Below, in pieces: positions 3,368 to 38,180 of a stretch of 64,000 nt of DNA. The DNA comes from a bacterium. Its GTDB lineage: Bacteria > Oederibacteriota > JAAXVQ01 > JAUVAV01. A program made the position numbers and the translations under genes. The stretch is from NCBI GenBank assembly GCA_021108215.1, contig JAIORK010000036.1, forward strand, positions 22,948 through 86,947. The letters run 5' to 3'. Numbering within the stretch: position 1 is the first letter of the stretch; each line of letters begins with the position of its first letter. The notes under the pieces were generated by a model. It did not search any database, was not told the DNA's origin, and was given only the letters and a program-made list of their open reading frames with translations.

Positions 3368-4213
3368 ATGTTAAAACGTTTTTTTCTTATTTCATTGATA
3401 GCTTTATTTTTGCTGCCGGCGCTTGTCCAGGCCAAAAACCTGGTCCGGATTGGTGAAAACGCGATTGTTACAGTCGAACTGGAGTTACAAGATGTGGTTG
3501 TCATCAATGGCGATGCCGAAATTTCCGGCCGCGTACTGGGCAACGTGATTGTCATTGGCGGCGACATTGTGCTCAATCCCTCAGCGTATGTCAGCGGCGA
3601 TGTGGTCTGTCTGGGCGGCATCCTCAAGAGCAGCACCGCAGCGATCATCAAAGGCTCCAAAGTGGAAATCGGCGGGAAAATCAGCTGGAAATCACTCCCT
3701 TATTTTTCTATCGCAAAGCTTATGTTCCTTAGCTTCTTATATAAAATCTCTACCGCCGTTATCCTGGTACTGCTGTGTGTATTTTTTGTACTGATGTGGC
3801 CCAATCAAATCCGCTATGCCGCGCAAGAGGCTTCCCACGATCTGGTCAAATCCATTCTGGTGGGGATTTTTGCAGTCGCGTTGCTGGTTCCCCTGGGGAT
3901 CGGATTTGCCATTACCTTATTCGGACTCCCCATCGCCTTTGCCATTTTGGTTTTTCTCCTGATTGCCAGCTGGTTTGGCATTGCCAGTATGGCCTATCTG
4001 GTCGGCACAAAAATCTCCAACCGTTTCTCGCCTTTGGTCGCGGTTATTTTTGGCCTGCTCATTCTTAAATTTGTTCATTTCGTCCCCTTCATCGGCTTCA
4101 TCCTTTACTTCATTGCCATTTTGCCCGGTCTGGGCGCGATTCTCCTGACGCGGTTCGGCACCAACCGGCCCTGGATGGGATCCAAAAACGAAAAATCCTC
4201 TAAAAAAAAATAG
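3368..4213 (+). CDS. membrane protein with N-terminal bactofilin-like beta-helical repeat region
   Basis: Signal/anchor sequence, then G-D-[IV]-x repeats (INGDAEISGRVLGNVIVIGGDIVLNPSAYVSGDVVCLGG), then 4-5 hydrophobic helices and a Lys-rich tail. Confidence 0.55.
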   Translation: MLKRFFLISLIALFLLPALVQAKNLVRIGENAIVTVELELQDVVVINGDAEISGRVLGNVIVIGGDIVLNPSAYVSGDVVCLGGILKSSTAAIIKGSKVEIGGKISWKSLPYFSIAKLMFLSFLYKISTAVILVLLCVFFVLMWPNQIRYAAQEASHDLVKSILVGIFAVALLVPLGIGFAITLFGLPIAFAILVFLLIASWFGIASMAYLVGTKISNRFSPLVAVIFGLLILKFVHFVPFIGFILYFIAILPGLGAILLTRFGTNRPWMGSKNEKSSKKK

Positions 4214-4379: not shown

Positions 4380-5162
4380 ATGAGAAAAAAACTATCTATT
4401 CTGGCATGGGTCATTCCCCTATTCCTGGCTATGCAGATTCAGGCTGAGACCATGCCAACCGCAGTGGGCACACCAAGTCCTGCAGCAGAACAATCCGTCA
4501 TTCCTGAAACAACACCCACACCTGAGCCCCAACCGGTTGTTTCCAAGCCGGCAATGCTGACTGAGAAAGAAACCGCCATGATTGAAAATCCAGAATCATC
4601 CTACAAAATCAACAGCCTGTTTGAAGGCCGCATCACCTCAAACGGCGGATACGGTACTGCGGGTTATAAACCCACCCGTATCGACGGAGAGACCGGACAC
4701 ATGATCGGCGGCCGGGGTGGCTGGATCATTAACCATTCACTCATGATCGGCGGTGCGGGCTATAACCTGGCCGATTCCCAGATCCAGCGTGAGTTTGACG
4801 GTGAGATGAAGAAGCTCCATTTTGGTTACGGCGGTATTGAGTTGGGGTACACTTTTTTCTCGGATCAGTTGATCCATCTTGTGGTGCACACTTTGTTTGC
4901 CGGTGGCGGTATCGGCACCCTGGACAAAGTTTATGCTGATGAAGACGAAGACGGTAATAAAAAACATACTTGGGAAGGTCCGGTAGATACGGTCTTTGTG
5001 GTCGAACCCATGATCTATGCCGAGCTAAATGTAACCGAATGGTTCCGGGTCTGCCTGGGCGGCGGTTACCGGCATGTAGAAGGCTGTGAGCTCAAGGGCG
5101 TGAGCAATCAAGACCTGAGCGGTGCTTCCGCCGAACTACTCTTCAAATTCGGATATTTTTAA
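4380..5162 (+). CDS. secreted protein, probable outer-membrane beta-barrel
   Basis: Signal peptide (FLAMQIQA/ET), Pro/Thr-rich linker, alternating Gly/aromatic strands, C-terminal Phe (KFGYF). GGAGG lies upstream of the ATG. Confidence 0.5.
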   Translation: MRKKLSILAWVIPLFLAMQIQAETMPTAVGTPSPAAEQSVIPETTPTPEPQPVVSKPAMLTEKETAMIENPESSYKINSLFEGRITSNGGYGTAGYKPTRIDGETGHMIGGRGGWIINHSLMIGGAGYNLADSQIQREFDGEMKKLHFGYGGIELGYTFFSDQLIHLVVHTLFAGGGIGTLDKVYADEDEDGNKKHTWEGPVDTVFVVEPMIYAELNVTEWFRVCLGGGYRHVEGCELKGVSNQDLSGASAELLFKFGYF

Positions 5163-5203: not shown

Positions 5204-5770
5204 CTGCCCATTGTATTCGCGCCGGCACGATAAAAAAACAACAACAAGGCCAGGCAGGACATATCCCCGGCTTGGCCTTGTTATATTTCCAGTAAATAGG
5301 CCACCCGCAAGCCGGCACGATAAACATCCGCCCAATGGGATTGCTGTTTGGCTTCAGGTTAATGAAAATCCTGCCAACGGATATTCCGGTGTTTCACATA
5401 ATCATCCCAGACGATCCGCTTGTGCTGAAGTCCGGCTGCCTGAAAAAACATTTCCAATGCAGGTATGGTGAGCAGCGTAAGCATACTTAAGGATTTCCCT
5501 TTGGAATCTTTCGCGCTTTCCTGCAGACAATAATCCCGTTTCTGCGTTTGGGAGCATTATAGCACCAACCCAAACTTTTCTCTGCGTCTGTAAAATGATT
5601 TTTTCATCAGTCTTTCGCCGGCATTCTTTTTTCCGTCCCCGCGTTACCTGTATTCGGCATTTCTATAAAAATGCATTAATGGGTTGATTTTTCTTTGAAA
5701 TATGGTAAAACGTCTATTCTCACGATCTTATTTATCCAAGACACATTCTCAATAGCTGGAGGGCACAAAC

Positions 5771-13094: not shown

Positions 13095-13278
13095 AATCCA
13101 CGAGGGTCAAACAAGTTTTTTGTCTTAAGCAGGTCTTCTGGCTTCCGGATCGTTCTACTAACCCAACCTTCCCATCCGTATTGAATAGTGGTCATTTGGG
13201 TGTTCGTCACCGGTTACAGCGGCGGGACCGCGACGGACTTGCACCGTCTTCCCTTTTCATCCTCTCGCGAGGAACATA
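13095..13278 (-). promoter_or_regulatory. cobalamin (B12) riboswitch
   Basis: Minus-strand RNA contains AAAAGGGAAGACGGUGCAAGUCCGUCGCGGUCCCGCCGCUGUAACCGG and the B12 box GAAGCCAGAAGACCUGCU (13129-13146). It sits in the metE leader. Confidence 0.85.
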
Positions 13279-13382
13279 AGACTTTTTTTATTAGATAGAT
13301 TTTATCGTTATAAAATTGAAAGTCAATCCTTAACTTACCGTTCCACATTTTTTTCGCGTTTTTTAGTGTGTCATGGAGCTGG

Positions 13383-16906: not shown

Positions 16907-17151
16907 GTCAAACCCCCATCTTCGTGATATTGCCTTCCCAATAAAGTAATAACACAGGTTTTTAAAACAAACTATAAAAACAAGGAAAAAGTCACAAAAT
17001 CAAATCAGGTGACGGACCATTACGGTTCCAGCGCTTGTGCAGCCAGGCGTTTCATCTGCTTGACAATTGCGGCCAGACCATTGGCCCGGGAGAGAGAGGT
17101 TGGTGCTTAATCCAATTTGTCTATAAAGATGAAAAAAAGGCAAAATGCCAT

Positions 17152-17180
17152 TTGACATATCTCCAAATAAAGCTTATGTT
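17152..17180 (+). promoter_or_regulatory. sigma70-type promoter of csp
   Basis: TTGACA-N17-TATGTT, about 65 nt upstream of the csp ATG. Confidence 0.5.
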
Positions 17181-17246
17181 TCTTATAGATTTCAGCCGGA
17201 TAGGGTTGGGATCAGTTAGGTTCATTTTATAGGAGGAACGTATTTC

Positions 17247-17450
17247 ATGGTACAAGGTAAAGTAAAGTGGTTTAATGATGCAAAAGGATTCGGTTTCTTG
17301 GAGCGCGAAGGCGGCAGTGATGTATTTGTTCATTTCTCAGCTCTCAAAGGCGACGGATTCAAAAGTTTGGCTGAAGGTGAAGCAGTAGAATTTGATGTCG
17401 TTGACGGTCCCAAAGGCCCTCAGGCATCCAATGTTTCCAAACTTGGCTAA
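17247..17450 (+). CDS. cold-shock protein, CspA family
   Basis: [21 protein letters not shown]...VFVHFS motifs, AGGAGG RBS. Confidence 0.93.
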
Positions 17451-17492
17451 GCAACCCATCCGACAACTCGTTGTATAGGTTTTAATTAAAAA

Positions 17493-17522
17493 CCCCCGTA
17501 CCTTTTGGTGCGGGGGTTTTTA
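17493..17522 (+). terminator. rho-independent terminator of csp
   Basis: CCCCCGTACC-TTTT-GGTGCGGGGG followed by TTTTT. Confidence 0.8.
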
Positions 17523-17597
17523 ATTTGGGGTAGCGCTACCCTACTGCTCCCCATTAACAAAAGAAGAGTAGTATAAAAGCTCTTTATTTTCCTACTA

Positions 17598-18320
17598 CTA
17601 ATAGCACTCATAGTACGGTGGCTTTTTGGGTGTTGGATATATTTTAGCCGAATAGTGTATGTTTTTTATCTTGTCACGAAATTTGTTTTGCAAAATAATA
17701 TTATTTCTAATTGCTGAAATATACTTATCCAGCGCTATTACTAAATCAACCTTTAAGGCATTAATTGATATCGGCAACCAATATCCAGCATAGTTATTCA
17801 AATGCGTTATTTCTCCGGCAGAATGAACTTGCACTATTTGGAAGTGTTTAACATCAAGCCTTTTTTCAAATATTATTTTGCCATCATTATCTGCTATTTG
17901 GAAATTGTGGCTGTAACTATTTCGTTCACCGTCTTCATCAGAAAATACCAACCACTTTAATATCGCTTTTTTACTTTCGAGATCTATTAATAGATTTTGT
18001 GGATGAAATCTATGACACAATCCATGTCGATACATGTAATAAAACCATTTAACTTCCTGGTCTTTGTAAATACTTGTGTCAAAATAATTACGAATAAATC
18101 CTAACTCAACATCCTCACCATCTTTCCCGAAGGGTCTTTGACCATGAAGATATTCACTCAATTCCAGCACATAACTAAAAAACATCAATGGAATAGTAAA
18201 CTCTCCTATCCCTGCTTTTAGAAGAGCACCCATTTCTAAGAGGATCGAGTTTTTATAATCTTTATCCAAATATTCGATTATCTGGTCACTGCTAACATTT
18301 TTAAATAATTTCCAAGACAT
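17598..18320 (-). CDS. hypothetical protein (orphan, AT-rich island)
   Basis: 240-aa ORF with a GGAG-type RBS, 32 nt downstream of the 777-aa gene. No recognisable motif. Confidence 0.65.
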   Translation of the reverse strand: MSWKLFKNVSSDQIIEYLDKDYKNSILLEMGALLKAGIGEFTIPLMFFSYVLELSEYLHGQRPFGKDGEDVELGFIRNYFDTSIYKDQEVKWFYYMYRHGLCHRFHPQNLLIDLESKKAILKWLVFSDEDGERNSYSHNFQIADNDGKIIFEKRLDVKHFQIVQVHSAGEITHLNNYAGYWLPISINALKVDLVIALDKYISAIRNNIILQNKFRDKIKNIHYSAKIYPTPKKPPYYECY

Positions 18321-18352
18321 ACCTCATCTCCATTTTAGACCACTTATTGATT

Positions 18353-20686
18353 TTATTTAATCGGATGTTTAGAAAGAATTTGTCGTGCTAATTCTTCTCC
18401 GTCATTTGGGCCTGGAAATCCACCTCTTTCCCGTAATCGTTCTTCAAGTTGTTTTTGTCTAAGTAAAATATGTTTTTGTACATTTTTCCATTGTTCTTCT
18501 GTGAAAACCTTCGGTTTTGTTTTAATTTCTTCGTCAACCTTGTTTGCCATATGTGTATTGTTTTTTGCACGCATTACTAATTGAATAGCATAAAAATGTG
18601 CATATATATCACCAATTGCGTAATCATCAGGATTTTTAGAAATTTCGCAATATGATTCCAGGATTGAGCGTATATTTGAAATACATAAGAGTAATACATC
18701 TTGCCACCACTCTCGGGTATAAAATAAAAGGCCTATGTACACCATAGAATCACATGCAATATCAGTCCATTCTTTAAATATGCTCTTCTTTCTATCAAAA
18801 GCAACCCAGTAAAATGACAAAATCCACGTGAATTTATCAACTAATTCTTTCACATCATTTTGGTTAGATCGTAGTGGATTATCTAATATCTGACACACAA
18901 CTTTAGCAATATGCTTAATTAGCTCATTAATCTCCCAAATAAGAAAACTATCTCCAAACTCATTTTTTTCTGCAACATTGCGCAAGTGCCGTGCAATGAT
19001 GTCTGTCATGTCTATTAATTCGTAATATGGATTTGTCGCATCTCGTTCAGGATCTACTTTCGGAAATATAGTTGCAGCCATAGCGAATAAATTCCCGAGT
19101 GAAGTTTGTTCGACAAGACTATATGCCTTTGTAAACGGATGATTCATTGATAGTCTTCCTTGAAGAGTTTCACTAATTATTGCAAAGGGCGCTAAATTTC
19201 CAAGTTTTTGAAAAACTTGGCCAAGTACTTCTTTGAAGTAATAATCTTTATTCCGAAGCATATGGTCAAGGATGATAAAATACTGTTTAATAACTTCTTC
19301 TGCTAATACAGGATTGCGGTTAATATAGAAGTACTGAGCAATTTCTGATATTCCATTTATAACTGGCAAGTGAATGTCTGAGTCATCAACATCCTTCGGA
19401 GTACATTTAATAATTCCAGAAAGCATGCCGCTCGTCTGAAACGGCACCTCATCAAGCCCTTTTGTTTGGGCAATCCTCACGCATGACAACATGTAGTTAA
19501 TTGGTTTCATAGACAATGGTGCAGTGTTCGGCCGGTATTTTCTTGCTCCTAAATTTGCTGTGTGGATAGTAATTTTCTTGTATGCTTCAGAAACACTTAA
19601 AGCTGCGGATTCATCATTTTGTGATATAGCAATACGGCTAATTTCATTTAACATTTCATAGGAACAGCCTGTAACTGCTTCTACATCAGATTGGGAAGTT
19701 AACAGCAATGTATCTGGGCAGGGCAAAATTAGTAAATTTAGCTTTCTTGCAGATAAATAATACATAGTCAAATGAGCAATCGCATACACAGCCGATTTCG
19801 TTAATAGTTTCTCATTTCGAGAAATAGCTTTTACTGCGATCTCAGATAAATCATTAATCCAACTATTGATAGTTTGGGGATAGCCGAACACTTGAGGATA
19901 ATAAATCGTTTCTATATCCTCAATTACCACTCCCTGCTTTTTTTCTTCCGGGAGTAATTTATAATGAAGTCTTGCTGATCGATTAACTGTCTTTTTTATA
20001 CGATCAATTGTTCTCATTGCTTGCTTGAGAGCAAGATTTGTTGAATAAGTTGGATCTAACAGCTTGCATATATGACGATGATACAAGCGTAGCAGATCAA
20101 GACTAAATCCCAGAGTTAATATAGCAACAGCTAATTTCAAGTTTTCTGAAACTCCAGCGAATCCACCCGCAGAAAAAGCAAAGCACGCTATACACAATAT
20201 CGCAAGAGCTACAAACGATGCATTTGTAATTAAGTCTCTCCGATAAAGACGGACAATTGAAGATGACCAAGCTTCTGCTGCACGTTGTATTGGTATAATT
20301 GATAGGGTTAATACAAGTGCCAGAATTGTTCCGTACGTGGCACCAAGTTGAATGAGCATTTTATCTATTGATTGCGTTGTGTTTAATGCTGTTCGCAAAG
20401 GCGGATAACCCAGAATAAATGATGCTATTATAAGGCCAATAATACCTATCATAATCTTGCTTGTTTTCAAAAGCAACCCACGACTAAACGAAGTAATATA
20501 AAACCATAAACGAACAACTTTTATTGTCAAATACGTTTTTATTCGCGTTATTATAGTTTTCAATCCATCACGTAGCGACATAATCATTCGTTTGAAATAT
20601 TTCACTAGTTTTGGCCACCATAGTATTACGTTTGTTGACCATAAATTGCGAATTTTAAAGTATGATTTGTTTTTATTTTGGTTCAT
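18353..20686 (-). CDS. hypothetical membrane protein (4-5 N-terminal TM helices plus ~550-aa helical cytoplasmic region)
   Basis: 777-aa uninterrupted ORF in AT-rich DNA with an AGAGGA RBS. TM segments at aa ~78-215. The segment LTLSIIPIQRAAEAWSSSIVRLYRRD is reminiscent of DUF2254-type membrane proteins (from memory, unverified). Confidence 0.7.
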   Translation of the reverse strand: MNQNKNKSYFKIRNLWSTNVILWWPKLVKYFKRMIMSLRDGLKTIITRIKTYLTIKVVRLWFYITSFSRGLLLKTSKIMIGIIGLIIASFILGYPPLRTALNTTQSIDKMLIQLGATYGTILALVLTLSIIPIQRAAEAWSSSIVRLYRRDLITNASFVALAILCIACFAFSAGGFAGVSENLKLAVAILTLGFSLDLLRLYHRHICKLLDPTYSTNLALKQAMRTIDRIKKTVNRSARLHYKLLPEEKKQGVVIEDIETIYYPQVFGYPQTINSWINDLSEIAVKAISRNEKLLTKSAVYAIAHLTMYYLSARKLNLLILPCPDTLLLTSQSDVEAVTGCSYEMLNEISRIAISQNDESAALSVSEAYKKITIHTANLGARKYRPNTAPLSMKPINYMLSCVRIAQTKGLDEVPFQTSGMLSGIIKCTPKDVDDSDIHLPVINGISEIAQYFYINRNPVLAEEVIKQYFIILDHMLRNKDYYFKEVLGQVFQKLGNLAPFAIISETLQGRLSMNHPFTKAYSLVEQTSLGNLFAMAATIFPKVDPERDATNPYYELIDMTDIIARHLRNVAEKNEFGDSFLIWEINELIKHIAKVVCQILDNPLRSNQNDVKELVDKFTWILSFYWVAFDRKKSIFKEWTDIACDSMVYIGLLFYTREWWQDVLLLCISNIRSILESYCEISKNPDDYAIGDIYAHFYAIQLVMRAKNNTHMANKVDEEIKTKPKVFTEEQWKNVQKHILLRQKQLEERLRERGGFPGPNDGEELARQILSKHPIK

Positions 20687-20788
20687 ATAATCCTCTGAAT
20701 CTATTTTCCTGTCAGCGAAATATAGGGCATTATCGTCAACTTTTAGCGGAATAGCAATTCAAAATATATTACACCGTAAATAGCACCG

Positions 20789-21157
20789 TTATTTTATACA
20801 TGACTGTTTCTTTATGGCTTTTACTACCAAATCACTGATTTCTTGCATTATCTCTGGATCGTATTGGATAAAATCAAGTCTACCGCTGCTTTTATCTTGG
20901 TTTTCTTTTACTACTTCTCGATCCATACGTTCAGTTATGATTTGGAAGACCTTTATATCACCCCGTGCCGCTTGTTTGATCATGGCGCCTGCAACCTTTT
21001 CCTGGCTGATACTGCCAGTCTCAAACTGTTCCTTGATAACAACATTCCAGTGACTGACTCCACACTTGGCACCGCAGGGATTTCCGCTTTGTCCCTTTCT
21101 TCTAATTAATTCTTTATAAACAAAAAAGAGCCTCCCTTTCGGGAGGCTCTTAAAGAT
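20789..21157 (-). pseudogene. phage-type DUF5681-like gene, apparently lacking a start codon
   Basis: The open frame encodes ...RRKGQSGNPCGAKCG... (K-G-Q-S-G-N-P-x-G signature) but has no ATG/GTG/TTG before Met at 20983. Its 5' part runs through the XRE-gene terminator. Confidence 0.4.
21127..21150 (-). terminator. rho-independent terminator of the XRE gene
   Basis: AGAGCCTCCC-GAAA-GGGAGGCTCT followed by TTTTTTG on the minus strand. Confidence 0.75.
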
Positions 21158-21359
21158 TCATTAGGTCCTTTAATTTAATCCCCAGCCCATGAGCTATCTT
21201 AGCTAGAGTGGTGAATTGCGGGTCCACAAGACCTTTTTCGATCTTACTTAGGTTGCCTTTGGACATGCCGTTTTCATAAGCTAGGTGTTCCAGGGTAATC
21301 CCCTTCTCCTTCCTTAGCTTATGTATCCTCATGCCCAGTTTTTCGGTTAATTGGCTCAT
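21150..21359 (-). CDS. XRE-family HTH transcriptional regulator
   Basis: 69-aa Cro/CI-type HTH (LRKEKGITLEHLAYENGMSKGNLSKIEKG). Confidence 0.85.
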   Translation of the reverse strand: MSQLTEKLGMRIHKLRKEKGITLEHLAYENGMSKGNLSKIEKGLVDPQFTTLAKIAHGLGIKLKDLMNL

Positions 21360-21395
21360 AATGGAGTTGATTTTACAATATTTTAGGTTTATAGT

Positions 21396-21413
21396 AGTTT
21401 CTTATAAGAAACT
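21396..21413. promoter_or_regulatory. 18-bp perfect palindrome, probable XRE operator
   Basis: AGTTTCTTATAAGAAACT in the divergent intergenic region between the XRE gene and the small plus-strand ORF. Confidence 0.5.
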
Positions 21414-21427
21414 TTTGGAGGTTAAAT

Positions 21428-21616
21428 ATGCAAATCTTAAAATCTACAATTCCTTATGTCATTGAATTTTCACCGGATGACATCAATTATTTACATTTGG
21501 CCTGTCATTATTATAAAGATTTACTGAAAAATAATAAGGACATGAAAAAAATCAAACGACGGGATAGACTTAAGCATCTAAACCAAATGATAACGCTCAT
21601 TGATTTGATGATGTGA
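21428..21616 (+). CDS. small hypothetical protein divergent from the XRE regulator
   Basis: 62-aa ORF with GGAGG 6 nt upstream of the ATG. No known motif. Confidence 0.45.
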   Translation: MQILKSTIPYVIEFSPDDINYLHLACHYYKDLLKNNKDMKKIKRRDRLKHLNQMITLIDLMM

Positions 21617-21647
21617 GGATTATCAAAAAAATATTTTTATATTTGTT

Positions 21648-22214
21648 CTATTTACTCTGCATTGCTAATAGCTCCGCCTTTTTTCCCTCCATCGGGGCTG
21701 AAATATGTATTCGTGATTTTTCTTTTTTACGCTTCTGGCCTCCCTGGTTTAATTTCGAGAGGTTTTCAGATATAAATCTATCAATATTCTCTTTAGCTTC
21801 CACATGAAAGCGAGCCACTCCGTTTTTAATATCCACATCTTTACCAGCCATGTGTATCAATTGATCAAGATACATTTTTACTTTAAATGCATGATATTTA
21901 ATCAAATCAACAATTTTTACCGAAGGCTGGCGAAAACCAATTTCCAAGTGAAGCCCAAGGACGCTTGCATAATTCAATAGATCACCAACAGCGATATCTT
22001 TGTCATAAGAGGATTCGATTTTGGATATTTTCCCCTGGGAACAACCAACTTTTTTCGCCAGTTTGGTCTGCGTGAGTTGGTGTTTGCAACGCAACATGAG
22101 CAGGAATTTGGAAATCATCCGGTTTTCGATTTCATACGCTACGCTTTTCTTGAATTCCTCATCCGTTGAAAGCCCTTCCATCATTTTCATAACATTTTCA
22201 TATTTTTTCGCCAT
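21648..22214 (-). CDS. HTH (XRE-type) antitoxin, HigA-like, with C-terminal extension
   Basis: HTH motif LTQTKLAKKVGCSQGKISKIESS. It shares one nucleotide with the upstream toxin gene (both ORF boundaries fall at 22214). Confidence 0.7.
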   Translation of the reverse strand: MAKKYENVMKMMEGLSTDEEFKKSVAYEIENRMISKFLLMLRCKHQLTQTKLAKKVGCSQGKISKIESSYDKDIAVGDLLNYASVLGLHLEIGFRQPSVKIVDLIKYHAFKVKMYLDQLIHMAGKDVDIKNGVARFHVEAKENIDRFISENLSKLNQGGQKRKKEKSRIHISAPMEGKKAELLAMQSK

Positions 22215-22585
22215 TATTGTCCCCCCTGTTTCATACCCTTTACCTTTTTCTTGTATTCCTCAATATCCCTACTCTGGGACCTCTTATCCCCTATTCCTAA
22301 AAGCACAACCCTCTTTTCCTTTACGTCGGAATAGATATAAAGCCGTGTTTCCTGGAGCTTCTTTCTTATTCCTCCACATCTTTGGTCAATCGCTTTGATG
22401 CCCATGGGTTCCGGATAGACAAACCCCACCTGGACCAACGAAGGCGACCCACACTCACACAAAGTCCTAAAATACGTGTCCAGGTTGTTCAAAACGCACT
22501 TTAATTCATCTTTGTGCTTTTTTTGATAGTGCTTGTGGTCCCTCTCGAAGGATTGCGTCGGTTGGAGATGCCATGGTTCCATCAT
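22214..22585 (-). CDS. RelE/ParE-superfamily toxin (HigB-like, toxin-first order)
   Basis: 123 aa. C-terminal RLYIYSDVKEKRVVLLGIGDKRSQSRDI is typical of RelE/HigB-type toxins. Confidence 0.6.
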   Translation of the reverse strand: MMEPWHLQPTQSFERDHKHYQKKHKDELKCVLNNLDTYFRTLCECGSPSLVQVGFVYPEPMGIKAIDQRCGGIRKKLQETRLYIYSDVKEKRVVLLGIGDKRSQSRDIEEYKKKVKGMKQGGQ

Positions 22586-22614
22586 CGGCTCAATCCGTAG
22601 GTATTGGTATAATT

Positions 22615-22656
22615 ATTCCATATTGGAATATTATCTCTTTTGGTTATATTTGTCAA
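22615..22656 (-). promoter_or_regulatory. promoter plus operator palindrome of the HigBA-like operon
   Basis: Minus strand TTGACA-N17-TAATAT. The -10 overlaps the palindrome ATTCCA-TAT-TGGAAT (22615-22629). Confidence 0.55.
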
Positions 22657-23034
22657 CGCTTCCATAAAACGTTTCCCTCGAATAAGTATCTTGCGTACCC
22701 TTTATTCGTTAGACAATTTTTTCGAGAGTTTCATGCATTTATTACTATTTTTTTTATTCTTTTTACGGATTGATATTGAGGTTGTATTAAGGACTCCTAC
22801 AAGGAATATCATGGTTTTTGGATAAGATGGCTGAAATGAGATAAGGGAAATTGGCTGCTGTGCTCACAGAGTTCTCTTCGCATGAGATTCCCCGTTTGGT
22901 ATCTAAGAAAAACAGAAAAAACCAATCTTCACTACTCGGGAATCGGTTACTACGGTCGCAACATCATGTTGCTCCCTGCGTAACCCCGCCTCGACAGCTA
23001 GCCAAAGACATCTCGTTTTTCATCCCAAAAAACT

Positions 23035-23403
23035 CTATTTTCCTGCTTCCTTTTTATCCAAACCCCTCACCAGTCCGTTGATCATTTTGCAAATTTCATT
23101 AAGATTTTCGTTCAAGTCTAGACAGTTATCTGAATTTATTAATTGTTTGCGTTTACATACTTCAATAATCGGTATACATTCCTGAGCAGATCCTCTAGCA
23201 ATCCAAAAGAACTGTTTGCGTTCTTTTGGATGCCATCTACCGTTTCCTTCTGCCAAATTAGCCGATATGGATAGCGCTGCCCGATTGAGCTGATCAATAA
23301 GGTAATAGTTGCCTTTCGGAAATGTGTCGGTAAGTTTAGATGTCTTTTCTGCAACATCGACCGCTTTTTGGTAAACTTCCAATTTCTCAAACATGAAAGA
23401 CAT
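23035..23403 (-). CDS. four-helix-bundle protein (23S rRNA intervening-sequence protein family)
   Basis: FEKLEVYQKAVD...LIDQLNRAALSISANLAEGNGR...FFWIARGSAQEC signature. Confidence 0.85.
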   Translation of the reverse strand: MSFMFEKLEVYQKAVDVAEKTSKLTDTFPKGNYYLIDQLNRAALSISANLAEGNGRWHPKERKQFFWIARGSAQECIPIIEVCKRKQLINSDNCLDLNENLNEICKMINGLVRGLDKKEAGK

Positions 23404-23556
23404 AGTTCAAACCTCCTATTTGGGTCCTTTATGGTATTAGACTGAAAATAGGAAGATTTCATGCTGGGAAAATGAAAAAAATACAAAAAAAATTGTGAAC
23501 AGCAGATCAGCTGAGCAGCAGACCGCCCTGAATCACATGTGATTCAGGACTCCACC

Positions 23557-23603
23557 AGAAATAGAAAACCCTGCACCTTATTGGTGCAGGATTTTCTATT
23601 TCT
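23557..23603 (-). terminator. long hairpin terminator immediately 3' of tRNA-Glu
   Basis: AGAAATAGAAAA(C)CCTGCACC-TTATT-GGTGCAGG(A)TTTTCTATTTCT, a 20-bp interrupted stem. Confidence 0.65.
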
Positions 23604-23677
23604 GGTAGCGCTACGGGGAATCGAACCCCGGCTTGATGACTGAGAATCATCCGTCCTAGCCGCTAGACGATAGCGCC
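23603..23677 (-). tRNA. tRNA-Glu (anticodon CUC), CCA encoded
   Basis: GGCGCTA TC GTCT AGCGGCTA GGAC G GATGA TTCTCAG TCATC AAGC CGGGG TTCGATT CCCCG TAGCGCT A CCA. Cloverleaf with the 4-nt variable loop typical of tRNA-Glu. Confidence 0.9.
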
Positions 23678-23860
23678 ATGAGCGAAGCGAATAGCTCTGC
23701 TGTTCTGCTGCTCTGATTTCAATAAATATGTACAAGCCAATTCCAACAACTTAAAAATATGATCAGCGGACCAGCCGATAGCAGACCGCTGGTTCGCTTT
23801 TTCCTGCTGTTCTGCTGCTCTGATGCTCACCTGCTCTGCAATTTCGCTTTTTCGAAATTG

Positions 23861-23916
23861 CGAACCCCGGCTTGATGACTGAGAATCATCCGTCCTAGCC
23901 GCTAGACGATAGCGCC
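23861..23916 (-). pseudogene. 3'-truncated tRNA-Glu copy (nt 1-56)
   Basis: Identical to the intact gene up to GGTTCG of the T-loop. The 3' T-stem, acceptor strand and CCA are replaced by the CAATTTCG hairpin. Confidence 0.85.
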
Positions 23917-24099
23917 ATGAGCGAAGCGAATAGCTCTGCTGTTCTGCTGCTCTGATTTCAATAAATATGTACAAGCCAATTCCAACAACTTAAAAATATG
24001 ATCAGCGGACCAGCCGATAGCAGACCGCTGGTTCGCTTTTTCCTGCTGTTCTGCTGCTCTGATGCTCACCTGCTCTGCAATTTCGCTTTTTCGAAATTG

Positions 24100-24133
24100 C
24101 GAACCCCGGCTTGATGACTGAGAATCATCCGTC
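24100..24133 (-). pseudogene. internal tRNA-Glu fragment (anticodon arm to T-loop)
   Basis: GACGGATGATTCTCAGTCATCAAGCCGGGGTTCG only. The upstream side is replaced by the hairpin GTCTTGC-TGC-GCAAGAC. Confidence 0.8.
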
Positions 24134-24156
24134 GTCTTGCGCAGCAAGACAGCTCT

Positions 24157-24252
24157 GCTGTTCTGCTGTTCTGCTGTTCTGCTGTTCTGCTGTTCTGCTG
24201 TTCTGCTGTTCCGCTGTTCTGATGCTCTGCTGTTCTGATGTTCTGCTGCTCT
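24157..24252. repeat. octanucleotide microsatellite (GCTGTTCT)x12
   Basis: Twelve head-to-tail 8-mers: eight exact copies and four variants with 1-2 mismatches (GCTGTTCC, GATGCTCT, GATGTTCT, GCTGCTCT). Confidence 0.9.
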
Positions 24253-24277
24253 GCCACTCTTTCTCACTACGAAAGAG

Positions 24278-24353
24278 TGGCTGCCGATCCTGGGCTCGAA
24301 CCAGGGACCCCCTGCTCCAGAGGCAGGTGCTCTACCAATTGAGCTAATCGGCA
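24278..24353 (-). tRNA. tRNA-Gln (anticodon CUG), CCA encoded
   Basis: TGCCGAT TA GCTC AATTGGTA GAGC A CCTGC CTCTGGA GCAGG GGGTC CCTGG TTCGAGC CCAGG ATCGGCA G CCA. U1-A72 and G73 are typical of bacterial tRNA-Gln. Confidence 0.9.
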
Positions 24354-24449
24354 ACAATTCTTCACCGCGGAGACGCTGAGCACACAGAGTAAACCAAAAA
24401 TAAATCTAAACGACTTCAAATCTCTCTGCGTTCTCTGCAATAAAAAAAT

Positions 24450-25919
24450 TTAAATATCGATCCCCGCCGTTTTCAAACCTATTTCCAAACGGCTGATCGT
24501 TTTTTCCTTACCCAAAATTTCCATCACTTCAAAAATACCGGGTGATTGCATACGTCCCGTCAGGCTAACCCGCAAAGGATGCGCTAAAATCCCGAATTTC
24601 ACCTGCTTTTCTTCAATAAAACCCTTGAGGGATTCTTCCAATCCTGAAACGGAAAAGGATTCTACCATTTTCAATTTTTCGTGTAAAGCCTTAAATAAAA
24701 CCTGATTTTCCTTCATACTCGCTAATTTTTCCCGCGCTTTTTCATCTATTTTTTCCAAATCCGGCTCCTGAAAAAAATAATCCACCTGACCGGGCAGCTC
24801 CGTAAGCAGTTTAAATTTTTCCCGCACCAATTTGACGCAGGCTGTGGCATAGGTTGTATCGTCTTTATCAGATAAAACCCCGGTATTTCGTAAAACACTC
24901 AGCGCACGTTTAATGTAAACAGCTTCATCAATACTGCGCATATACTGCCCGTTCATCCAGGTCAATTTATCCGGATCAAAGACCGCAGGATTTTTACTGA
25001 CTTTTTTCAAAGAAAATTTTTCTTCCAGTGCTTGTTTGGAAAATAGTGTGGTTTTGTCATCAAATGCCCAGCCCAAGAGCGCTAAATAATTAATCATGGT
25101 TTCCGGCAGGTAACCCTCTTTGGCATACGCACCAATTGAAGTGGCGCCGTGCCGTTTGGACAACCGCGTCTTATCCGGACCCAGAATCATGGGAACATGC
25201 GCAAATTTCGGAAGCGGTTCATTGAGCGCCTTGTACACCGCAATCTGACGGGGTGTATTGGAAAGATGATCGTCACCGCGGATCACATGCGTAATTTTCA
25301 TGGTCACATCATCCACTACAACAGCAAAATTATAGGTCGGCAGACCATTGGTCCTAAACAGGACAAAATCATCCAGTACTTTATTTTCAAAAACAACTTT
25401 TTCCCGAACAGCATCCCCGATAATCGTCTCGCCCTCGGTCGGCATTTTCATGCGAATGGTATGCGGTTCTCCGGCAGCAACACGGGCTTTGGCCTCTGTT
25501 GACGGGATGTGACGACAAGCTCCGTTGTATTTGGGATCTTCATTTTTTTCCAATGCTTGCTTGCGCATACTGTCCAGGCTTTCTGCTGAACAAAAACAAT
25601 AATAGGCATCTCCCGAGTCAAGCAGCTGATTCACTTTCTCCCGATAGATATCCAACCGCTCTGTCTGACGGTAGGGTCCAAAATCACCGCCCACACCCGG
25701 CCCTTCATCCCAATTGAGGCCGAGCCATTTCATATCTTCAAGGATCATCTGCACAGATTCCTCGGTGCTGCGCTCAACATCGGTATCTTCCAGGCGAAGC
25801 ACAAAGGTCCCCCCCTGACGGCGTGCATAGAGATAATTAAAGAGTGCGGTGCGTGCGCCGCCAATATGCAGATGACCGGTCGGCGAGGGTGCAAAGCGGA
25901 CGCGAATGGTTCCAGACAT
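24450..25919 (-). CDS. gltX: glutamate--tRNA ligase
   Basis: HIGH motif PSPTGHLHIGGART and KMSKS-type LSKRHG. Start set at the second ATG (25919), which is preceded by GGAGG; the first ATG lies in a 9-bp hairpin. Confidence 0.93.
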   Translation of the reverse strand: MSGTIRVRFAPSPTGHLHIGGARTALFNYLYARRQGGTFVLRLEDTDVERSTEESVQMILEDMKWLGLNWDEGPGVGGDFGPYRQTERLDIYREKVNQLLDSGDAYYCFCSAESLDSMRKQALEKNEDPKYNGACRHIPSTEAKARVAAGEPHTIRMKMPTEGETIIGDAVREKVVFENKVLDDFVLFRTNGLPTYNFAVVVDDVTMKITHVIRGDDHLSNTPRQIAVYKALNEPLPKFAHVPMILGPDKTRLSKRHGATSIGAYAKEGYLPETMINYLALLGWAFDDKTTLFSKQALEEKFSLKKVSKNPAVFDPDKLTWMNGQYMRSIDEAVYIKRALSVLRNTGVLSDKDDTTYATACVKLVREKFKLLTELPGQVDYFFQEPDLEKIDEKAREKLASMKENQVLFKALHEKLKMVESFSVSGLEESLKGFIEEKQVKFGILAHPLRVSLTGRMQSPGIFEVMEILGKEKTISRLEIGLKTAGIDI

Positions 25920-26048
25920 AGTACCTCCAGGCATTTTTGTGCAACAAAAATGCAGAGCATTTGAGAGAAGAAAACAGAAAACAGTTCAACACACTCAAAT
26001 GTGGTCTATTCTCAACTTTCTATTGCTCTGCGTACGTTTTATAATAAC

Positions 26049-26541: not shown

Positions 26542-27444
26542 TTATTGTTTTATATATTTTAGGGGATCAACCGGAATGCCATTGACGCGAATTTCATAGT
26601 GAAGATGAGCTGCCGTAGAACGGCCGGTATTTCCGACAAATCCAATCACCTGGCCGCGCCGGACACGCTGCCCGATATTCACCAATTGGCGCTGAAGATG
26701 CGCATAACGGGTGGAAAAACCATATCCATGATCAACCACGATCAGTTTACCATAGCCGCCTTCCCATCCCACATACGTTACCACACCGTCAGCCGGCGCT
26801 TTGATCGAGGTTCCTGCCTCATTGGCAATATCCAGACCGTGGTGCATGGTCGTACCTTCAAAAAACGGTGAATTGCGCATTCCGAAACGGGAGGTGATCC
26901 AGCCCCGAATCGGCCAGTCTGTGGGTTTTGAAGCCAGCAAGGACCGCTGGGTCGCTATATATTTTTTTAATTCCTGATAACTTTGCATTCTTTCACGCGC
27001 ATTTTGTTTAAGAAATGTAAGGGATTTTGCAAATTCATTGGGCGTCAGGGTTGATTTGCTGTTCAAGGCCTTCATAAGATTAACCTGGTCCACCGGTGAA
27101 GGCCCCCCCTCGCCGGTATATTTAAGCAGATTTTTTTTATTCTTCATTTTTAACATAGCGCGTAATTCATCTTCGATTTTAACCACACGCTGAAAAGCTT
27201 CATGTGTACTGGCCAATTCCTGTATAAAATAAGCATTTTTTTCAACCAATTGGATATTGGCCCGGCGTGTCAATTCATAACCCACATGGCGGGTCATGAT
27301 GAAAGAAGAGACGCCTACCGTGGTCAGCCCCAAAAACCCAACCAGCAAGAGAATTGCCGTTGATATTTTAAACGAAAATATTTTCCGCTCATCATGGGGG
27401 ATCAACATCAGTGTTACAAAGTTGTCTTTTTTCTTTTTTGCCAT
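26542..27444 (-). CDS. membrane-anchored M23 (LytM-type) metallopeptidase
   Basis: N-terminal TM helix, coiled-coil region, HHGLDIA and GNTGRSTAAHLHYEIRVNG zinc-site motifs. Confidence 0.88.
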   Translation of the reverse strand: MAKKKKDNFVTLMLIPHDERKIFSFKISTAILLLVGFLGLTTVGVSSFIMTRHVGYELTRRANIQLVEKNAYFIQELASTHEAFQRVVKIEDELRAMLKMKNKKNLLKYTGEGGPSPVDQVNLMKALNSKSTLTPNEFAKSLTFLKQNARERMQSYQELKKYIATQRSLLASKPTDWPIRGWITSRFGMRNSPFFEGTTMHHGLDIANEAGTSIKAPADGVVTYVGWEGGYGKLIVVDHGYGFSTRYAHLQRQLVNIGQRVRRGQVIGFVGNTGRSTAAHLHYEIRVNGIPVDPLKYIKQ

Positions 27445-38025: not shown

Positions 38026-38052
38026 TTTAAAACCTCATCACTATTTTAATTT

Positions 38053-38130
38053 CAGAACAGCAGAGCAGCTGATCAGCAGACCGCAGGTTCACTTTTTTGC
38101 TGTTCTGCTGTTCTACTGCTCACCTGCTCT
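38053..38130. repeat. dispersed CAGCAGAA/GCTGTTCT-motif element (inverted-repeat form)
   Basis: AGAACAGCAGAGCAGC (38054-38069) pairs 15/16 with GCTGTTCTGCTGTTCT (38099-38114). The inner GACCGCAGGTTCACTTTTTT...CTGCTCACCTGCTCT aligns with the tRNA-Glu spacer at 23786-23838. Confidence 0.65.
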
Positions 38131-38180
38131 ACGATTGAATGGGAATAATTGTTTTTGGACAATTATTCCCATTCAATCGT
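38131..38180 (-). terminator. 22-bp perfect hairpin embedding the guaA stop codon
   Basis: ACGATTGAATGGGAATAATTGT-TTTTGG-ACAATTATTCCCATTCAATCGT. The right arm is the last 6 guaA codons (5 sense codons plus the stop). Confidence 0.6.

Follow-up and report, generated by a model that had tools for sequence, protein, structure and literature searches.

In a 64,000-nucleotide (nt) stretch of DNA from a bacterium of the Oederibacteriota (assembly GCA_021108215.1, contig JAIORK010000036.1), referred to here as the window, the intact tRNA-Glu(CTC) gene near the glutamyl-tRNA synthetase gene gltX is accompanied by two partial copies of itself, which form part of a perfect 239-bp tandem repeat. With a probability of roughly 0.75, we interpret this array as a very recent, population-variable tandem duplication for which a 34-bp remnant of an earlier tRNA-Glu copy served as the seed. 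All positions are those of the window, and the order of elements and the coordinates of the locus are read along the minus strand.

Over 23622-24133, Tandem Repeats Finder reported 2.1 copies of a 239-bp period that match at 100% with 0 indels, and a repeat search gave 100% identity between unit 1 (23861-24099) and unit 2 (23622-23860); a perfect repeat of this length is far beyond chance and cannot have arisen by it. Together with direct reading of the sequence, these searches bore out every coordinate given by an earlier sequence-only reading of this DNA, which had described two identical 239-bp units. Each unit contains, in order, a hairpin, (G)CAATTTCG-AAAAAG-CGAAATTG(C), a palindrome of ~85 nt that we call module M and that holds a terminator-like stem at its end followed by CATATTTTTA, a spacer with the promoter-like sequence TTGTTG-N17-TTTATT, a leader and nt 1-56 of tRNA-Glu. 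In unit 1 these elements lie at 24078-24099 (hairpin), 23990-24077 (M), 23960-23988 (promoter-like sequence) and, after the leader, 23861-23916 (tRNA-Glu nt 1-56). In unit 2 the hairpin is at 23839-23860, M at 23751-23838 with its terminator-like stem at 23762-23779, and the promoter-like sequence at 23721-23749, followed by the leader and by tRNA-Glu nt 1-56, which here belong to the intact gene (23603-23677), whose last 19 nt (nt 57-75) are unique. The second partial copy, F0 (24100-24133), comprises nt 23-56 and precedes unit 1. Both partial copies run into CAATTTCG-AAAAAG-CGAAATTG, the stem of which reaches 9 bp when G56 and the next C are counted. The perfect 34-mer corresponding to nt 23-56 starts at 23622, 23861 and 24100 with differing flanking bases, homology stopping at both of its ends, and no fourth copy was found in the window even when up to 3 mismatches were allowed.

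The same genetic background also contains an allele that lacks one unit. Contigs evidently from the same strain were found through an identical neighbouring protein, a 122-amino-acid member of the 23S_rRNA_IVP family (23035-23403, hereafter the IVP gene). ERZ26872896 NODE_166 (L038; 46.9 kb, 26x) matches window 17035-23894 and 23861-24211 at 100%, and ERZ26872907 NODE_1549 (L041) matches 22035-23894 and 23861-24208, also at 100%; both of these independent short-read assemblies correspond to the window minus exactly one 239-bp unit, with flanks that are 100% identical. A script found the first 560 nt of NODE_166 within the window sequence once a unit had been deleted from it, but not within the unaltered window. 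In both contigs F0 is followed by 205 nt and then by the intact tRNA-Glu, and the truncated nt 1-56 copy is absent. Most likely, very closely related populations differ in the copy number of the array, some having one unit and others at least two. Exact-protein look-ups with the 494-amino-acid GltX and with two spurious open reading frames (ORFs) that cross the duplication junction (23663-23974 and 23902-24357) returned no record, and genome and metagenome scans with GltX found only a same-strain contig (L017) that ends inside tRNA-Gln and is uninformative on the array. This contig, JGI Ga0255424_1752 (L017/L043), has a 58-bp segment inverted with respect to window 26990-27047, probably a small chimeric join in that assembly.

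The locus shows identical head-to-tail units, n+1 short repeats at their borders and an allele with one unit fewer in the same background, as found for tandem duplications, and short direct repeats promote RecA-dependent or slippage-type duplication and deletion in bacteria. We propose that a single working tRNA-Glu(CUC) gene carried the decayed relic F0 ~200 bp upstream, and that F0 and nt 23-56 of the live gene would then have formed a perfect 34-bp direct repeat at 239-bp spacing. Misaligned pairing between the two, by unequal sister-strand exchange or replication slippage, would convert A-F-G-F-B into A-F-G-F-G-F-B (F being the 34-bp repeat), which is the arrangement observed; the middle copy would take the leader and nt 1-56 of the live gene, and the region upstream of the intact gene would be left unchanged. 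Because F0 has a distinct leader of its own in both alleles, we infer that the one-unit state is the simpler ancestor; collapse of two units into one across the 273-bp repeat would be equally possible. A very recent slippage or unequal crossover had been one of the explanations offered by the sequence-only reading, and it gains support from the one-unit-fewer allele with identical flanks and from the three 34-bp repeats as the expected substrate and product.

The origin of F0 and of the hairpins was approached through related genomes. Close relatives of this lineage have not been sequenced: GltX identity is 60-69% for the best matches, some of them labelled candidate division FCPU426 or Firestonebacteria, and a literature search on FCPU426 turned up nothing on this locus. 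The relatives compared include L001, L044 (GCA_030637655.1), L047 and L050, and the order parA-parB-M23 peptidase-bactofilin-gltX-tRNA-Gln is common to several relatives. L001, L044 and L047, with GltX 64-69% identical, have a single tRNA-Glu(CTC) with no fragment, and L050 has no tRNA-Glu after tRNA-Gln; the comparison with related genomes that the sequence-only reading had proposed thus found the truncated nt 1-56 copy in none of L001, L044 and L047. In L044 the CCA end of tRNA-Gln leads directly into GCAATTTTGC-TTC-GCAAAATTGC and then AGAGCAAGTAAGCA...AGCGAACCTGCGGTCTACTGATC, and the window counterpart, placed after the truncated tRNA-Glu copies, is GCAATTTCG-AAAAAG-CGAAATTGC followed by AGAGCAGGTGAGCA...AGCGAACCAGCGGTCTGCT; the two elements are plainly one and the same hairpin-plus-M module. 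A second hairpin of L044, GTCCTGC-TGC-GCAGGAC (5040-5056), follows GAGCT and stands directly 5' of tRNA-Glu nt 1, and the 17-nt window hairpin GTCTTGC-TGC-GCAAGAC (24134-24150), which likewise follows GAGCT and abuts nt 23 of F0, matches it as the ancestral tRNA-Glu leader. The two differ by a single compensatory change of a C-G to a T-A pair, which suggests a conserved 5'-leader structure and possibly a processing signal.

Both window hairpins are homologous to elements that flank tRNAs natively in L044, so they are native elements that have been displaced. The hairpin that the sequence-only reading had described as a replacement of the T arm is indeed present, but it is not novel, since L044 has the hairpin-plus-M module directly after tRNA-Gln. 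F0 itself appears to be the remnant of an older tRNA-Glu copy that retained the ancestral leader and lost nt 1-22, with nt 56 of the older copy joined to the module that follows tRNA-Gln in L044. In an L044-like ancestor, the junction between nt 56 and the hairpin would have been created by tandem duplication of the segment that starts right behind tRNA-Gln and ends at tRNA-Glu nt 56, and later deletions between octamer tracts would have led to the present form. Loss of nt 1-22 between GACGG direct repeats was considered and rejected, since such a deletion removes 25 nt and not 22; at most 1 nt of microhomology was involved in this loss.

Several points weigh against a recent duplication in the population. 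No second contig reads through two units, the short-read contigs all ending in the microsatellite upstream of F0 or in the repeat; outside the window the two-unit junction is indicated indirectly, by a contig end and not by reads; and short-read assemblers can collapse perfect tandem repeats, so that one-unit contigs alone are no proof of a one-unit genome. The origin of the junction between nt 56 and the hairpin and the loss of nt 1-22 are reconstructed and not observed, and expression of the truncated copy is compatible with the sequence evidence. The extra unit could also be an assembly artefact, as the sequence-only reading had cautioned, in which case the true sequence would have one unit and the F-G-F loop would have been traversed once too often or duplicated during gap closing. 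The perfect identity of the units would fit such an error, as would the two independent assemblies that show one unit between 100% identical flanks, and at k≤33 even the one-unit allele loops through the 34-bp repeat.

A third sample argues against an artefact. The first bases of ERZ26872904 NODE_32 (46.6 kb; also at NCBI) are exactly the 55-mer of tRNA-Glu nt 2-56, and 55 is the default largest k of metaSPAdes. In a k-mer simulation at k=55 this 55-mer was the only branching vertex of the two-unit sequence, the next base being A in the intact gene and C in the truncated copy, whereas the one-unit sequence had zero branching vertices, because GCAAGAC and not tRNA nt 2-22 precedes F0. Logan contigs built at k=31 start 30 nt before nt 57, as this reasoning predicts for either allele given the 34-bp repeat. 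As only an allele of at least two units creates a k=55 branch at the start of NODE_32, the reads of ERZ26872904 very probably contain a junction of nt 1-56 with a base other than A, and with it an allele of at least two units that is independent of the window. In addition, the window spans the microsatellite that breaks every SPAdes assembly, which suggests that its assembly drew on longer reads or a larger k, to which the 34-bp repeat would be unambiguous. We consider an artefact unlikely; the break at k=55 weakens the concern without eliminating it for the window's own assembly.

In every test applied, the truncated copies were unlike a tRNA. ARAGORN called neither of them and found only the two intact tRNAs, and the Rfam tRNA model at E≤1 had no match at 23861-23916 or 24100-24133. 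In the minimum-free-energy fold of an RNA comprising nt 1-56 and the hairpin there was no acceptor or T arm, the acceptor strand lacked a partner and the energy was no better than that of shuffled sequences (z of -1.6). The nt 1-56 copy is predicted to be a 3'-truncated pseudo-tRNA that is unable to form a cloverleaf, and the live tRNA-Glu is unlikely to be affected by it because the 183 nt upstream of the intact gene are the same in both alleles. A sigma-70 scan did not call TTGTTG-N17-TTTATT as a promoter, and the same scan placed a terminator-like hairpin with a T-run just upstream of it in each unit. L044 has a good TTGATA-N17-TATAAA upstream of tRNA-Glu at a homologous position, so that a promoter is still plausible; of the duplicated promoter-like spacer that the sequence-only reading had reported, the duplication stands, being present in both units, but the promoter call was not confirmed by the scan. 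If the spacer were active, the extra unit would give a transcript of leader, pseudo-tRNA, hairpin and M that ends at the T-run of M, which we would regard as a by-product.

A functional array, in which each promoter would drive an RNA of ~200 nt with the D arm and anticodon arm of tRNA-Glu and a hairpin end, is very improbable. It would account for the promoter-like spacer and the terminator-like hairpin with T-run in each unit, for nt 1-56 having been kept intact in the copy and for the adjoining gltX, and the RNA could in such a case be a tRNA-half-like regulator or a decoy for the adjacent glutamyl-tRNA synthetase (GluRS). The truncated nt 1-56 copy is, however, missing from the same-strain one-unit assemblies and from every relative examined, it has no significant structure and no Rfam match, and the perfect identity of the units speaks for recency and not for selection. 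The proposal of the sequence-only reading that the locus produces tRNA-half-like RNAs is thus not upheld, the copy being neither conserved in the same strain and in relatives nor tRNA-like. Similarly improbable is a rapidly switching, contingency-type locus made up of the array and the microsatellite, in which the RNA of the extra unit would titrate or regulate the non-discriminating GluRS of the gene directly upstream; if this were true, copy number would tune the charging of Glu- and Gln-tRNA.

An insertion at the tRNA was also considered, since tRNA genes are common integration targets and low-GC (~35%) DNA lies downstream at ~17.5-23 kb. This island is accessory, because L044 has just a 44-amino-acid ORF between the IVP gene and the cold-shock (CSD) gene, the interval that the island occupies in the window. 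Its genes include small proteins of the XRE-type helix-turn-helix and RelE-like kinds; its ORFs of 777 (18353-20686) and 240 (17598-18320) amino acids had no significant Pfam, PADLOC or NCBIfam match, the sole match for the two being far below the family cut-off. No integrase or recombinase family was found among the island ORFs scanned against the same three collections, which were those of ~60 amino acids and above. The tRNA-Glu 3' end has no further copy in the window at up to 3 mismatches, and neither it nor the 34-mer occurs at the far side of the island. That the partial copies are attachment-site (att) scars from integrase-mediated insertion or excision of this island, a link also raised by the sequence-only reading, is the least likely explanation and largely refuted, as the repeated part is the internal nt 23-56 and not the tRNA 3' end, neither sequence recurs beyond the island, no integrase was matched in the scanned ORFs, the island lies between the IVP and CSD genes and not at the tRNA, and the 205 bp between the repeats are native spacer homologous to that of L044.

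A recent duplication between short repeats has well-known counterparts. In E. coli and Salmonella, tandem duplication and deletion between short direct repeats proceed by RecA-dependent unequal sister-chromosome exchange or RecA-independent slippage. The present locus shares with these the identical head-to-tail units, the n+1 border repeats, the allele with one unit fewer and an unstable, reversible state; here, in contrast, the repeat is a 34-bp tRNA fragment and the product a truncated tRNA copy, and the mechanism is one we infer. Attachment-site duplications at tRNA genes, known from integrase sublocation classes, contain the 3' part of the tRNA and bracket an element with an integrase. 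They are alike in that part of a tRNA recurs close to an intact tRNA gene, with variable accessory DNA nearby, but differ in that the repeat here is an internal segment, its copies are separated by 205 bp of native spacer, and there is no distal repeat and no integrase in the scanned ORFs. The nearest published tRNA example is Pseudomonas fluorescens SBW25, in which tRNA gene copy number is flexible through spontaneous tandem duplications (PMC7661048, PMC10954465). Tandem duplication there is also reported to alter the content of tRNA loci and to vary within populations, although those duplications span large regions and, under selection, supply complete functional tRNA genes (PMC7661048, PMC10954465), whereas here 239 bp are duplicated, no intact tRNA is added and there is no apparent selective benefit. 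We regard the locus as ordinary in this sense: it adds one more case to a familiar type of event and does not represent a novel type of RNA gene. It illustrates cleanly, in a natural setting, how the relic of a decayed gene supplies 34 bp of homology and seeds a new tandem duplication. Its practical value lies mainly in annotation and assembly: in this uncultured clade, short-read assemblies break at this mini- and microsatellite region of variable copy number, and the truncated tRNA is to be annotated as a fragment of a pseudogene and not as a gene.

The whole locus reads, on the minus strand, gltX, tRNA-Gln, a hairpin, an octamer microsatellite, the leader hairpin, F0, unit 1, unit 2, the tRNA-Glu 3' end and a terminator hairpin. 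GltX (24450-25934) has the Pfam domains tRNA-synt_1c and Anticodon_2, and its gene is directly 5' of the tRNA pair, tRNA-Gln(CTG) and tRNA-Glu(CTC); in relatives it is labelled a non-discriminating GluRS by some sources, and the enzyme may adjoin both of its presumed substrates. ARAGORN and Rfam agree on two intact tRNAs, both on the minus strand, tRNA-Gln(CTG) at 24278-24353 (Rfam tRNA 65.7 bits) and tRNA-Glu(CTC) (58.5 bits), the latter with a cloverleaf as its minimum-free-energy fold and nearly invariant among relatives. After tRNA-Gln comes the hairpin CCACTCTTTC-GTAGT-GAGAAAGAGTGG (24254-24280), read from the sequence, which takes in the tRNA-Gln CCA end and has analogues after tRNA-Gln in relatives. 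After tRNA-Glu comes a long terminator hairpin (23554-23606), an inverted repeat of 24 nt that is 96% complementary, takes in the ACCA 3' end of the tRNA and was flagged on the plus strand by a terminator scan. The encoded (A)CCA end is thus part of the stem in the hairpins after both tRNAs, and this design is likewise seen in L001, L044, L047 and L050.

The octamer microsatellite (CAGCAGAA; 24154-24254) is imperfect and has ~12.6 copies according to Tandem Repeats Finder. The window and NODE_166 have a perfect period-8 run of 58 nt; in ERZ26872904 NODE_5 (L042), the contig on the gltX side, this run reaches at least 95 nt and three substitutions are also present. The length of the microsatellite, like the copy number of the adjoining 239-bp array, differs between same-strain assemblies, and the SPAdes contigs that reach it (L038, L041 and L042) break there. 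The combination of octamer tracts, tRNA fragments and M arms in either orientation accounts for the rearrangement of the locus and for the tendency of assemblies from this clade to stop directly after gltX. In L047, the closest relative by GltX (69%), tRNA-Glu (3808-3882) is inverted with respect to gltX and tRNA-Gln, with the orientation of the IVP gene kept, which would fit a flip between inverted arms of M or of octamers. At its contig end, L001 has a perfect 55-nt repeat (5357-5411 and 5501-5555, 144 nt apart) just 3' of the tRNA-Glu terminator, which looks like an assembly-graph loop and would mean that another species has M-like repeats in tandem at this locus.

Module M folds as a long imperfect hairpin. 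It starts with a 3' hairpin and continues with AGAGCAGGTGAGCA, octamer-like repeats and AAAAGYGAACCWGCGGTCTGCTGATCAGCTG..CTGTTC, after which a T-run often follows. Besides the copies in the two units, the window has a copy at 38045-38131 (folded as 38040-38135) and a right arm only at 23497-23526, all on the minus strand, and a covariance model identified copies at 4621-4729 and 5182-5266 in L044, 3534-3622 in L047 and 4131-4217 in L050. The isolated right arm, together with the octamers 5' of the tRNA, brackets the intact tRNA-Glu as an inverted repeat, and a split covariance-model match (23489-23722) has the intact tRNA-Glu between a left and a right arm. The fold was more stable than shuffled sequences for the copy at 38040-38135 (z of -4.6) and for the copy inside the unit (z of -2.4), and six copies from four species yielded a consensus structure of 25 pairs, of which nine show double changes. 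The model scored 70-92 bits on the three window copies (92.4 bits for M of unit 1) and similarly on the two L044 copies and those of L047 and L050, these matches being in part the sequences from which it was built. No Rfam family matched M; at permissive E-values only chance hairpin-type matches below the gathering score appeared, and such matches, for example miRNA families or a Thr leader on the terminator, were discarded.

The core of M, AGCGAACCTGCGGTCT, has been conserved between species that are only 64-69% identical in GltX. With several intergenic copies and a conserved palindromic structure, M resembles REP/BIME-like dispersed repeats, sharing with them the imperfect long palindrome, the position downstream of gene or tRNA 3' hairpins and a species-specific flavour; unlike them, it occurs at just two loci in 64 kb, has a core, AGCGAACCTGCGGTCT, that is shared across species, and belongs to no Rfam family. 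The hairpin-plus-M module around tRNAs may merit separate study as a terminator-associated repeat. Elsewhere in the window, a cobalamin riboswitch lies at 13111-13294 on the minus strand (Rfam, 124.5 bits).

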